From Patescibacteria group bacterium (GTDB lineage Bacteria > Patescibacteriota > UBA1384 > GWA2-35-9 > JBASTP01): 64,000 bases of DNA. Numbering within the stretch: position 1 is the first letter of the stretch; every line of letters starts with the position of its first letter. The position numbers were made by a program, and so were the translations under genes. The notes under the pieces were generated by a model. That model had not been told where the DNA came from and made no database searches. It was given only the letters and a program-made list of their open reading frames with translations. The stretch spans positions 3,178-67,177 of the forward strand of contig JBASTP010000005.1 of NCBI GenBank assembly GCA_049274945.1. Reading direction: 5' to 3'. Positions 46,472 to 49,275 of the stretch are shown here, piece after piece.

Positions 46472-46519
46472 GGTGAATCACACAACGAAAATAGCCCGCA
46501 CAAGGCAGGACTGTTTCGT

Positions 46520-46595
46520 TGGTGGCTGCGGTAGGGATCGAACCTACGACCTAACGCTTATGAAGCGCTCGCTCTAACCACTGAGCTACGCAGCC
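46520..46595 (-). tRNA. tRNA-Met(CAU), elongator type (could be tRNA-Ile2 if lysidinylated), CCA encoded
   Basis: Complete 76-nt cloverleaf: GGCTGCG-TA-GCTC-AGTGGTTA-GAGC-G-AGCGC-TTCATAA-GCGTT-AGGTC-GTAGG-TTCGATC-CCTAC-CGCAGCC-A-CCA. Confidence 0.85.
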
Positions 46596-46692
46596 ATCAC
46601 ATACAAAGTAGCACAGGTTTGACGCCTGCGCTACTTTGTATCTGCTGTTATGTTGCGGGGGTGGGATTTGAACCCACGACCTCCAGGTTATG

Positions 46693-47323
46693 CATACCAC
46701 TGCGGCTTTCGCCGTCCCAAAAAAGGTTTGTGGTCTGGACTATACCTTATCCCGATACAACGTTGTCGGGATCCCGCCATCTAGTCTCTACACCTTACCC
46801 GATGTATATCGGGTCTTGGCTCGGTATTACCATATCTACAGAGATAAGGCTTCACCGAATTTGACGGGTATTGCCCCGCTCGTTACCGAGCGGGCGGCCC
46901 ACGATGACAACAAATCCCAACGTTCCCTGTAAGCAGCTGCGATCGGTTTTCGCTGCCTTTTTTCGACTTCTACGAGCGCGATTGTACTGCCATAACGTAC
47001 AAAAATTTCAACTGGAATCACGTAGAAGACAGGGCCTTGATCAATGTAGACGATTGCAAGGTCAAAATCTTCATTGTTGTAACGCTCTCTTCGCATCACC
47101 CGCCGGTTGGTTTTGGTCCTGCGCACATCTACGGCAAAGTAATTATTGGCAGGAACAAACCACGCGTGCTTGATCTGGATACGAATGAGCTTTCCGTTGA
47201 GGTCAACTGCTATGTCATAAGGTAATCGATCACCAACTGGTTTGAGTACCTTAAAGCCTCGACGAAGAAGTTCTGTTACAACAGCTGACTCCGCAATGTC
47301 TGCCTTGAGTTTTGTGTCCATTG
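46693..47323 (-). mobile_element. Group I intron carrying an internal homing-endonuclease-like ORF
   Basis: Core elements on the minus strand are GTAGAGACTAGATGG (R-like) and AAGGTATAGTCCAG (S-like), plus P9-like CGGC-GAAA-GCCG and a terminal G before CATAA. The ORF starts 2 nt after the 5' splice site and occupies the 5' part of the intron. Confidence 0.7.
46836..47321 (-). CDS. Intron-encoded PD-(D/E)XK-type putative homing endonuclease
   Basis: 161 aa, MDTKLKADIAESAVVTELLRRGFKV.... PYDIAVDLNGKLIRIQIK has D...D/E-x-K restriction-endonuclease-fold spacing. The track ORF 46836-47351 begins with an upstream GTG that is actually tRNA exon 1. Confidence 0.55.
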   Translation of the reverse strand: MDTKLKADIAESAVVTELLRRGFKVLKPVGDRLPYDIAVDLNGKLIRIQIKHAWFVPANNYFAVDVRRTKTNRRVMRRERYNNEDFDLAIVYIDQGPVFYVIPVEIFVRYGSTIALVEVEKRQRKPIAAAYRERWDLLSSWAARSVTSGAIPVKFGEALSL

Positions 47324-47457
47324 AGCCTGGCGAGCTACCGGACTGCTCCACCCCGCGATGTTATTAGTGTTCGCTGTCGCACAAAATAATCTGCGACAGT
47401 ATCCGTATTATACACATATTTACATTCTCGTGTAAAGATCGTAAGCTAAAGTTCGCA

Positions 47458-49275
47458 ATGGACCGACGCATCAAAAATATTCTCTATTTCATTATCGCGC
47501 TACTTGTGGTGTGGGCGCTGTTTGAATTTTCGGTCCCGCGACAGACCGGCGTCAAACGAACCACCATCTCAGAAATCTCCCAGGCAGTCGAAAAAGGCGA
47601 AGTTGAATCAGTCAAGGTTGAAGGCAACCGAGTAAAAGCAACCTTGCGTGACAACCAGGTACTCGAAACGTTTAAAGAACCGCAAGCAACCTTGAAAGAC
47701 TATGGCATTGTCCCCGAGAAAGTAACCATCGAGATTGCTAATCCCGAGCGAGGAACGCTCCTTCCCAACCTCCTGTCGTTCCTGTTGCCATTTGCGATCG
47801 TTGGAGTATTTCTCTACTTCATGATTCGGTCGGCACAGGGCACTAATATTAGAGCTCTCTCGTTTGGAAAATCTCAGGCGCGACTCTTTGAACCGGGTCA
47901 AAAACGGATTACCTTTGCCGACGTCGCCGGCGCCGAAGAACCCAAGCGTGAGCTGGTAGAGGTAGTTGAGTTCCTGCGCTACCCAGAAAAATTTCAGCGG
48001 CTGGGCGCCGAGATTCCTAAAGGAGTGCTCCTTATTGGCCCGGCTGGAACCGGTAAAACGTTGATGGCGCGAGCAGTCGCCGGTGAAGCAAATGTACCGT
48101 TCTTTTCGATCTCCGCCTCGGAGTTTGTGGAAATGTTTGTCGGGGTTGGCGCGGCTCGCGTACGTGACCTCTTTGCCAAAGCTAAACGCAATGCCCCGGC
48201 AATTCTGTTTGTTGACGAGCTTGATGCGGTTGGCCGCCAGCGCGGCGCGGGGCTCGGTGGATCGCATGACGAACGCGAACAAACCCTCAATCAAATCTTG
48301 GTCGAAATGGATGGCTTTGAAACAGAAACTCGCGTCGTGGTTATGGCGGCAACAAATCGTCCTGACATCCTCGACCCGGCCTTAGTGCGGCCGGGCCGTT
48401 TTGATCGTCGAGTGGTACTCGACCTGCCAGACAAGCGAGACCGCGAATCGATCCTCAAAATTCATGTGCGCGGCAAGCCGCTTGGCAAGGATATCGATCT
48501 TGAAAAGGTTGCCGGAGGTACTCCGGGATTTTCAGGCGCTGATCTTAAAAATGCGGTGAATGAGGCAGCAATTTTTGCGGCGCGCCACGACAAGAAAGAA
48601 ATCGCAATGAGCGATTTTAACGAAGCGGTGGAGAAAGTAATGCTTGGTCCGGAACGGCGTTCCCGGATCTTGAGCAAAAAAGAAAAAGAGATCATCGCCT
48701 ATCATGAAGCAGGGCACGCCATCGCCGCGCGATCATTGAAACACTGTGATCCGGTTCATAAAGTATCTGTCATTTCTCGGGGCATGGCGCTCGGCTTTAC
48801 CTGGACCCGACCTACAGAAGACCGGCACTTGATCAGCCGATCTAAATTCGAAGACGACCTCGCACAGCTCCTCGCAGGCAGAGTTGCCGAACGTCTCATC
48901 TTTAATGAGACTACCACTGGCGCGGCTAACGACCTCAAGCGGGCCACCAAAATCGCTCGCGATATGGTTACTCAGTATGGCATGTCAGATCGCCTGGGTC
49001 CGGTGACATTAAGTGAAGGCGATGAGCTTGTTTTCCTAGGTAAAGAACTGGGTGAACGCAAAACATATTCTGAAAAGATTGCCGAAACAATCGATGGAGA
49101 AATTTCAGCAATGGTTATTAAAGCCGAGACCCGGGCACGCGAAGTGCTCGAAAAACGAAAAGTAATCCTTCATAAATTAGCTGAACTGCTCATCAACGAA
49201 GAGACCGTGGAAGGTGATAGATTCGAACAATTTTTCCAGGGGGCGCCAAGCCCTAAGCGTGCTAAAAGGAAATGA
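47458..49275 (+). CDS. ftsH: ATP-dependent zinc metalloprotease FtsH
   Basis: 605 aa. N-terminal TM helices, AAA+ Walker A GPAGTGKT and SRH, and zinc motif HEAGHAI. Confidence 0.95.

Follow-up and report, generated by a model that had tools for sequence, protein, structure and literature searches.

Within the 64,000-nucleotide stretch of contig JBASTP010000005.1 analysed here (hereafter, the window), the initiator tRNA gene (tRNA-fMet) is split by an insertion that is very likely (probability of about 0.88) a mobile IC3-type group I intron, placed between tRNA positions 33 and 34, whose P1 loop holds a homing endonuclease gene (HEG) of the I-Ssp6803I family. This kind of element was first described in cyanobacteria. 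An earlier reading of the same DNA, made from the letters alone (the original prediction), had singled out the locus as an unusual second instance of the I-Ssp6803I system. The element is real and was correctly read, and it is not rare. Its layout of exons, ribozyme core and junctions is shared by 77 of the 80 related loci compared, and is thus not a chance arrangement.

The split initiator tRNA gene

The locus was read on the minus strand over 46500..47500 using ARAGORN in default mode, in intron mode and on the joined exons. In intron mode, the program reports tRNA-Met(cat) i(35,631). The joined exons are likewise called tRNA-Met and form a clean cloverleaf with anticodon CAU, a C1xA72 mismatch and a D stem GAGC/GCUC giving an A11:U24 pair. 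C1 opposite A72 and A11:U24 are marks of bacterial initiator tRNAs. The intron-aware check called for by the original prediction was run with ARAGORN, and it agrees with the exons of 34 and 40 nt, with the initiator identity and with a 631-nt insert, preceded by U and ending in G, at 47323..46693 (Table 1). The default mode, which considers no introns, finds only the neighbouring tRNA-Met at 46595..46520. At about 15 related loci, ARAGORN proposed intron-containing 'tRNA-Leu(caa)', 'Pro', 'Ser' or 'Thr' genes; these calls were rejected as misplaced junctions in the same tRNA-fMet, as established by direct mapping of the exons.

The anticodon stem of the window tRNA-fMet contains G30-C40, G31-C39 and A29-U41, that is, two of the three canonical G-C pairs. 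Since the same stem recurs in an intron-less relative (L084) and in many Omnitrophota hosts, A29-U41 looks like a lineage feature rather than damage.

Structure and covariation of the ribozyme

The group I model of Rfam, RF00028 (Intron_gpI), matches at 47004..46716 (-) with 53.0 bits for a gathering score of 50 (E = 1.3e-10). The R-like and S-like elements and the GAAA-capped P9-like hairpin that had been recognised in the letters are all present. For covariation, cores were extracted from 80 related loci (the best 80, to which the locus counts below also refer; host labels are those of the submitters), and 42 'mini-introns', in which the ORF (open reading frame) was swapped for a GAAA linker, were aligned (A2). 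A hand-derived structure of 67 pairs, comprising P1, a P1 extension, P2-P6a, the P7 pseudoknot, P8, P9 and P9b, was scored on this alignment. Standard pairing is found in 95.9% of the cells of the 42 introns, as compared with 29-43% when partners are slid by 1-3 columns. Changes on both sides occur at 34 of the 67 pairs, and none of 500 shuffles equals the observed alignment on any measure. Compensatory changes are present in P2, P3, P5, P6a, P8, P9 and P9b. RNAalifold, run blind to the hand structure, recovers P1, the P1 extension, P2-P6a, P8 and P9/9a/9b, with 39 compensatory pairs; the pseudoknotted P7 is not recovered from the alignment. An unconstrained minimum free energy (MFE) fold of the 705-nt precursor returns the same helices (z = -3.25).

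The junctions follow the family pattern. In P1, the U.G wobble is invariant (42/42), the five contiguous pairs are 99% paired, and a separate sixth pair, A+2:U, is formed in 71% of cases. Every 5' exon (77/77) has T as its last base, and every intron has G. The intron thus has a complete P1-P9 structure, P3/P7 pseudoknot included, which covariation supports, and canonical junctions (U.G at the 5' site, terminal G). Over about 150 nt, the window core aligns with four IC3-classed introns at 67-72% identity (Nakagawa et al.), whereas IB2 and IA1 examples of the same survey align over 16-23 nt only, which points to subgroup IC3.

Some initial pairings were discarded. The P1 and P2 that Rfam places inside the ORF (47004..46960) are an artefact, because the model cannot span the 400-nt P1 loop (L1); the true P1 pairs 47327..47322 with 46901..46896. 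The Rfam registers of P3 and P4 are off by one relative to the pairing supported by covariation. Finally, a P6 pair drawn at first between G131 and U159 of the mini-introns was removed since it clashed with P4.

An endonuclease gene in the P1 loop of the ribozyme

The ATG of the ORF sits 2 nt into the intron, and the product is identical to NCBI MFY9484358.1 (161 aa). Pfam PF11645 (PDDEXK_5) is matched at E = 4.9e-40, with 137.2 bits for a cut-off of 26.1, over profile positions 1-137 of 138. I-Ssp6803I itself (PDB 2OST, chain A) is matched at E = 1.7e-42, residues 2-147 of the ORF aligning with 3-149. The proposal of a PD-(D/E)XK-like ORF of 161 codons is thereby borne out. Alignment of the window ORF with I-Ssp6803I and 25 homologues from databases (27 sequences) shows 39 invariant columns, and the window ORF keeps all of them; they include D8, D36, Q49 and K51, the latter three within P-Y-D...Q-I-K. 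A search of NCBIfam with the ORF gave no match although PGAP, the NCBI annotation pipeline, names the protein, so that the name must come from another rule.

As had been pointed out, the mechanically called ORF 46836..47351 opens at a GTG that belongs to exon 1 (MEQSGSSPGS-MDTK...). The first residues of several homologues on deposit, 'VEQPGSS...' or 'MEQ(P/S)GSS...', are tRNA exon 1 in translation; extending these ORFs too far, into the tRNA, is therefore routine among gene callers.

At the other end, the final 66 nt of the ORF coincide with the core, from the 3' strand of P1 through P2, P3 and P4 into P5. The 23 C-terminal residues, at 46836-46905 of the window and about columns 170-200 of alignment A1, fall outside the conserved domain, and at this place homologues have either '...PVKFGE...' or '...NSVEP...'. 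Both tails are the conserved ribozyme sequence GUCAAAUUCGGUGAAGCC (P3, J3/4, P4) read in two frames; it is therefore the RNA, rather than the protein, that sets the sequence of the tail.

L1 measures 3 nt in the ORF-less relative L010, between GGCUCA and UGGGC; in the window, it holds the ORF, whose ATG comes immediately after P1. In the P1 extension, codons 1-4 pair with the last conserved codons of the ORF, and pairing reaches 92.6%. At one position of this helix, 27 sequences have C-G, 12 have U-A and 3 have U-G, and none is left unpaired; the changes fall at synonymous third positions (GAC/GAU and UUG/UUA). Comparison of the aligned introns thus indicates that the ORF is looped out between P1 and an extension of P1 built of its own first and last conserved codons. 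Once folded, the ribozyme would enclose the start codon, so that its folding would compete with translation of the ORF.

Proposed mode of action

The Azoarcus tRNA-Ile and Anabaena tRNA-Leu introns, which serve as IC3 ribozyme models, combine a compact P1-P9 with GNRA-capped P2 and P9 and conserved R and S elements. They splice in two steps initiated by guanosine, which is the mechanism we infer for the window intron; they carry no ORF and interrupt other tRNA genes at other positions.

In the window, transcription of the tRNA-fMet and tRNA-Met pair would be driven by a TTTACA/TATAAT promoter. The ribozyme would then fold and bind guanosine at P7, and two transesterifications would join U33 to C34, yielding a 74-nt tRNA. 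Since CCA is not encoded, it would be added after excision. The endonuclease would be translated from the unspliced or the excised intron RNA and would cut intron-less tRNA-fMet alleles in the pseudo-palindromic anticodon-stem region; repair off the intron-containing copy would then spread the intron. With the start codon bracketed by P1 and its extension, folding and translation are probably mutually exclusive.

Distribution of the element

The claim of a second instance is refuted, because the family is widespread, the protein already named and its spread published. The endonuclease family has at least 1,450 database relatives and occurs in 405 of 185,579 species-representative genomes. NCBI names the protein 'group I intron-associated PD-(D/E)XK endonuclease', and the patchy distribution of PF11645, suggestive of horizontal gene transfer, was already on record in 2012 (PMC3424549). 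Of the 80 loci, 69 are complete, their HEG lying inside a split tRNA-fMet and their introns measuring 621-777 nt. The 77 loci with common exons, core and junctions are these 69, seven with an ORF-less intron, and L061, in which the start of the contig cuts exon 1. L064 is cut by the end of its contig; the complete arrangement was reconstructed in neither of these two, nor in L079. The last of the 80, L041, has a free-standing HEG and no tRNA close by.

The 69 complete loci carry more than ten phylum-level labels. The labels span Omnitrophota (26), 'Planctomycet*' (10), Nitrospirota, Chloroflexota, 'Deltaproteobacteria' and Patescibacteria (5 each), Gammaproteobacteria and Bacteroidota (2 each), and Margulisiibacteriota, Melainabacteria, Armatimonadota and Myxococcales (1 each). 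Nostoc is among the loci with an ORF-less intron. Endonuclease-bearing Patescibacteria copies in tRNA-fMet come from Uhrbacteria, Azambacteria, Doudnabacteria and Saccharibacteria.

In seven of the 80 loci the HEG is free-standing: an ORF-less intron of 202-244 nt occupies site 33/34, and the HEG follows 59-1126 nt downstream on the same strand, with a terminator-like hairpin in front of it in most cases. L067 has an in-frame stop in the ORF, which the other six loci keep intact. Such loci occur in at least four places on the tree, Nostoc carneum included. Their layout resembles the 'collaborative homing' of a free-standing endonuclease and an ORF-less intron.

Two of these loci also show, between tRNA-fMet and the free-standing HEG, an element of about 150 nt (L057, ~2300-2440; L072, ~1840-1990) with complementary ends, ACAGGATTTG...CAAATCCTGT, and finishing with ...CCCCGCAACCA. 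Its ending looks like a duplicated tRNA-fMet 3' end or a tRNA-like small RNA.

Host, empty homing site and origin of the window copy

The host is a member of the Patescibacteria (candidate phyla radiation, CPR), Berkelbacteria-like as read from its genes. NCBI labels the identical protein and the adjacent FtsH as coming from a 'Patescibacteria group bacterium' metagenome-assembled genome (MAG), where they lie on a contig of 71,755 nt. The nearest named relatives of this FtsH are from Berkelbacteria (80%), Nealsonbacteria and other Patescibacteria. The window also contains the housekeeping genes dnaK, groEL, lepA, bipA, dnaE and murJ. The identical ORF is found on independent NCBI, Logan and ENA assemblies. 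In L001 (GCA_964342885.1), where flanking sequence is available, the downstream genes are those of the window; in all three of the independent assemblies, a divergent upstream open reading frame is found where the window has ftsH.

Two Berkelbacteria-labelled MAGs (L084 and L085) share the neighbourhood of the window, namely a Golvesin/fn3 protein, DivIC, two tRNA(CAU) genes and an FtsH that is 80% identical. Their tRNA-fMet is uninterrupted (2807-2881 in L084) and matches the window exons exactly over the 16 nt to either side of the junction, which reads GGTAGCTCGCCAGGCT / CATAACCTGGAGGTCG in L084, the slash marking the insertion point. By sequence, this intron-less gene is a natural empty homing site and a candidate substrate of the endonuclease. 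In a closer relative, L088, the site is occupied: the endonuclease is 84-86% identical to that of the window, has no frameshift, and adjoins FtsH as in the window. The L088 FtsH has the length of P0122, which is 87% identical to the window FtsH.

The window HEG is closest to the Margulisiibacteriota copies L005 (78% amino-acid identity) and L010 (72%) and to Omnitrophota copies (62-73%), followed by the other Patescibacteria copies (54-59%). A neighbour-joining (NJ) tree has two clades. The window and L088 fall within an Omnitrophota/Margulisiibacteriota clade, and all other Patescibacteria copies in a second clade with Nitrospirota, Chloroflexota and cyanobacteria. The position of the start codon broadly follows this division: the ORF starts a few nt into the intron at most loci of the window's clade, and the other clade has a leader of about 18-26 nt or an unrecognised start. 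All five complete Patescibacteria copies (L048, L063, L076-L078) have the long leader and the window has none. Since identities, tree placement and ORF start set the window apart from the other Patescibacteria copies, horizontal acquisition in the window lineage is favoured, the window and L088 having then inherited the element vertically. Confidence in this scenario is only moderate because the tree carries no support values. The source would be Margulisiibacteriota- or Omnitrophota-like, and the acquisition would be independent of the other Patescibacteria copies. Horizontal transfer had been one of the two possibilities left by the original prediction.

In many intron hosts, among them Omnitrophota, Margulisiibacteriota and the window lineage, the top of the anticodon stem is not G-C (A29-U41 or another pair), which leaves their initiator tRNAs one short of the three canonical G-C pairs; in clade-B hosts, G29-C41 is mostly retained (host exons L004-L083). 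As the anticodon stem is the endonuclease target, target and enzyme clade may co-vary.

Comparison with known systems

The closest characterised counterpart is the I-Ssp6803I system of Synechocystis sp. PCC 6803 (2OST), with which the window shares the tRNA-fMet gene, the 33/34 site, the intron type and a PF11645 endonuclease homologous over its full length. In both, the ORF lies in P1 and runs into the ribozyme core: the Synechocystis ORF overlaps P1/P2 by 61 nt (PMC3073962, Table 1), as compared with the 66 nt, reaching into P5, of the window. The differences concern the endonuclease, 47-48% identical and in the other major clade, the start of the ORF, with a leader of about 18-26 nt in the loci of the I-Ssp6803I clade (these were compared, rather than the Synechocystis intron itself), the host phylum, and the target, in which A29-U41 replaces G29-C41. 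Moreover, the window copy is known from its sequence alone.

ORF-less IC3 introns in tRNA-fMet of cyanobacteria and Bacteroidota use the same site 33/34 (PMC13011429, Table S5). Their cores are homologous to the window P3-P9 (67-68% identity over about 150 nt), but they measure about 300 nt and have no endonuclease, unlike the 631-nt window intron with its intact ORF in L1. The same survey treats 33/34 of tRNA-fMet as a standard site of insertion, lists ORF-less IC3 introns there in Bacteroidota, and reports PF11645-bearing tRNA-fMet introns from two cyanobacterial complete genomes (PMC13011429). The tRNA introns described there for Patescibacteria are also group I introns of the anticodon loop, some with a homing endonuclease. 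However, they are of IA type, inserted at 35/36 of tRNA-Asn or tRNA-Asp (with, in addition, divergent tRNA-Thr introns), and their endonucleases are HNH enzymes; the window intron is IC3-like, interrupts tRNA-fMet at 33/34 and encodes a PD-(D/E)XK enzyme. No IC-type intron and no tRNA-fMet intron was found among 95 complete Patescibacteria genomes, and further cases were explicitly expected from draft genomes (Nakagawa et al., 2026; PMC13011429). It is fair to say that an I-Ssp6803I-type intron had not yet been described for this phylum.

Weighing of the interpretation

Several points weigh against the reading of the locus as a mobile intron with an active homing endonuclease. Splicing, translation and cleavage or homing are all deduced from sequence. 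The RF00028 score exceeds its threshold by just 3 bits, a small margin which is explained by the inability of the model to span the ORF in P1. P7 (42/42) and most of P4 and P6 are invariant, and covariation is uninformative for helices that never vary. The original prediction had suggested folding P1 and P10: P1 stands, with its invariant U.G, but a P10 pairing is not evident in the window intron. A P10 drawn by eye, between AUAAC of exon 2 and GUUGU upstream of the guide sequence, was dropped since its bases belong to the better-supported P1 extension. In that extension, covariation concerns one pair, and its 12 U-A sequences may trace to few events. The assignment of D36, Q49 and K51 as catalytic residues is presumptive. 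The host labels come from submitters, those of 'Planctomycet*' being doubtful, and the NJ tree is rough (138 columns, no bootstrap).

Two alternatives question either the mobility or the origin of the element. It is unlikely, yet the most serious of the alternatives, that the intron still splices and leaves the tRNA functional, that the HEG no longer supports homing, being inactive, decaying or in another role, and that the intron is inherited vertically only. Most bacterial tRNA introns are indeed without endonuclease genes (PMC13011429), related loci have lost the ORF (introns of 202-244 nt) or carry a disrupted free-standing one (L067), and the presence of the intron in both the window and L088 is what vertical descent predicts. 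Against this speak the intact 161-aa ORF with every family-invariant residue, its divergence from the L088 copy to 84-86% identity with no frameshift, and the existence of a homing-competent empty site in a related lineage. Slightly less probable still is descent from an early Patescibacteria ancestor with loss in relatives such as L084. The endonuclease-bearing tRNA-fMet introns of Uhrbacteria, Azambacteria, Doudnabacteria and Saccharibacteria would fit such a history. However, these Patescibacteria copies are only 54-59% identical to the window copy, belong to the other major clade with Nitrospirota, Chloroflexota and cyanobacteria, and have the long leader (L048, L063, L076-L078) that the window lacks, whereas the Margulisiibacteriota copies are 72-78% identical.

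It is very improbable that the split gene is dead, its intron unable to splice and its task taken over by another, intact initiator tRNA gene of the same genome. The part of the genome in view is 64 kb, which leaves room for another copy, but core helices, U.G, terminal G, P7 and junctions all fit the family consensus, neither exon is damaged, both are identical near the junction to the functional gene of the relative, and a strong candidate promoter match lies upstream. Even less credit can be given to an assembly or binning artefact that would have placed an Omnitrophota- or Margulisiibacteriota-derived piece on a Patescibacteria contig. That the closest named relatives of the endonuclease are in other phyla could suggest it. 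A chimera or contamination was nevertheless rejected, as the identical protein is found on independent NCBI, Logan and ENA assemblies with matching downstream genes in L001, the neighbouring FtsH and the synteny resemble those of Patescibacteria on both flanks, and L088 has the same junction with FtsH; in addition, the tRNA exons match the relative's tRNA, and the GC content shows no break. A mobile IC3-type intron with an I-Ssp6803I-family HEG thus remains the preferred interpretation.

Genomic features and neighbourhood

The features of the locus are collected in Table 1. The second hexamer of the candidate promoter ends about 50 nt upstream of exon 1. The second tRNA(CAU) gene, which may be a tRNA-Met or a tRNA-Ile2, is probably co-transcribed with the split tRNA-fMet. 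In the spacer between the two genes, a perfect 15-bp hairpin with a 7-nt loop is found at 46603-46639 (-), ACAAAGUAGCGCAGG / CCUGUGCUACUUUGU; no U-tract follows it, and it could be a processing signal. The corresponding spacer of the intron-less L084 is 17 nt long, without such a hairpin. The two-tRNA cassette (46520-47357 in the window) is on the strand opposite to DivIC and FtsH, and in L084 (2807-2971) and L085 on the same strand as these genes; the cassette is therefore inverted in the intron-bearing lineage.

Table 1. Coordinates of the split tRNA-fMet gene, its intron and nearby features in the window; the last eight rows give positions in the related loci named.
Feature	Coordinates	Strand	Evidence or remark
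tRNA-fMet exon 1 (34 nt, tRNA positions 1-33, U33 last)	47357..47324	-	CGCGGGGTGGAGCAGTCCGGTAGCTCGCCAGGCT; ARAGORN
tRNA-fMet exon 2 (40 nt, C34 to A73)	46692..46653	-	CATAACCTGGAGGTCGTGGGTTCAAATCCCACCCCCGCAA; ARAGORN; CCA not encoded
Intervening sequence (631 nt, after U, G last)	47323..46693	-	Insertion between tRNA positions 33 and 34
Group I intron, 631 nt, IC3-like	46693..47323	-	RF00028, ARAGORN, covariation, similarity to IC3-classed introns
P1 5' strand GGCU/CA, across the 5' splice site (slash), U.G wobble at U33	47322..47327	-	Covariation, RNAalifold
P1 extension 5' strand GGACACAAA (codons 1-4 region)	47311..47319	-	Alignment, RNAalifold, MFE fold
Homing endonuclease ORF, 161 aa, PF11645, in P1 loop	46836..47321	-	ATG at 47321, stop ends 46836
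P1 extension 3' strand UUUGUUGUC (codons D-L-L-S, end of conserved domain)	46906..46914	-	Alignment, RNAalifold, MFE fold
Internal guide sequence = P1 3' strand, UGGGCC	46896..46901	-	NGGGC motif in 78/78 cores
P2 hairpin, GUAA tetraloop	46875..46894	-	Compensatory changes at 8/8 pairs
P3 5' strand CCCGUC	46863..46868	-	100% paired; compensatory changes at 3 pairs
P4-P5 domain; ORF stop UAG in P5 loop	46820..46859	-	Rfam, covariation, RNAalifold
P6/P6a	46793..46819	-	Compensatory changes at 7/7 P6a pairs
R element with P7 5' strand, GTAGAGACTA / GUAGAGACUA	46782..46791	-	Rfam, alignment; P7 invariant
P3 3' strand GGCGGG	46773..46778	-	Covariation, RNAalifold
P8 hairpin	46750..46771	-	Compensatory changes at 5/5 pairs
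S element with P7 3' strand, AAGGTATAGTCC / AAGGUAUAGUCC	46737..46748	-	Rfam, alignment
P9 domain ACCAC...GUGGU	46696..46734	-	Compensatory changes in P9 and P9b
P9b hairpin GGC-GAAA-GCC inside P9 domain	46704..46713	-	GAAA cap
Terminal intron G (omega-G), 3' splice site	46693	-	78/78 introns: G last, then CATAAC
Sigma-70-like promoter candidate, TTTACA-18 nt-TATAAT	47407..47436	-	11/12 consensus matches; putative function
Second tRNA(CAU), elongator-type, G1-C72, CCA encoded	46520..46595	-	ARAGORN; Rfam 72.1 bits; 57 nt downstream
Free-standing HEG locus L010	2017-2920
Free-standing HEG locus L029	1938-2944
Free-standing HEG locus L052	1068-2950
Free-standing HEG locus L057	1920-2920
Free-standing HEG locus L067	1939-2689
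Free-standing HEG locus L072	1489-2532
Free-standing HEG locus L081	1944-2980
Free-standing copy L041	2498-3046		No tRNA nearby

Significance

Taken alone, the window locus adds one ordinary, well-behaved example to a characterised system and is modestly new in its host phylum; it extends the host range of I-Ssp6803I-type introns to Patescibacteria. Together, the window and the 69 related loci show that the initiator tRNAs of many uncultivated lineages go unnoticed in standard tRNA annotation and that the element moves between phyla. The family also supplies endonuclease engineering with hundreds of natural variants that have slightly different anticodon-stem targets.

A wider proposition can be put forward tentatively, at somewhat less than even odds. 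Among bacterial group I introns, the tRNA-fMet intron with its PD-(D/E)XK HEG would be one of those that horizontal transfer has spread most widely. It would be concentrated in phyla without cultivated members (Omnitrophota, Margulisiibacteriota, Patescibacteria, Nitrospirota and Chloroflexota, termed uncultivated here), with at least two entries into Patescibacteria. The HEG would be built into the ribozyme through the codons of the P1 extension, with compensatory synonymous changes and with folding and translation exclusive of each other, and it would move in and out of the intron, as in the seven free-standing cases among 80 loci. If this is true, the free-standing and ORF-less loci form a natural series of mobile-intron assembly and decay. 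For the host itself, the initiator tRNA is essential and probably single-copy in a reduced CPR genome. If it is single-copy, translation initiation in this bacterium would hinge on the correct self-excision of a ribozyme.

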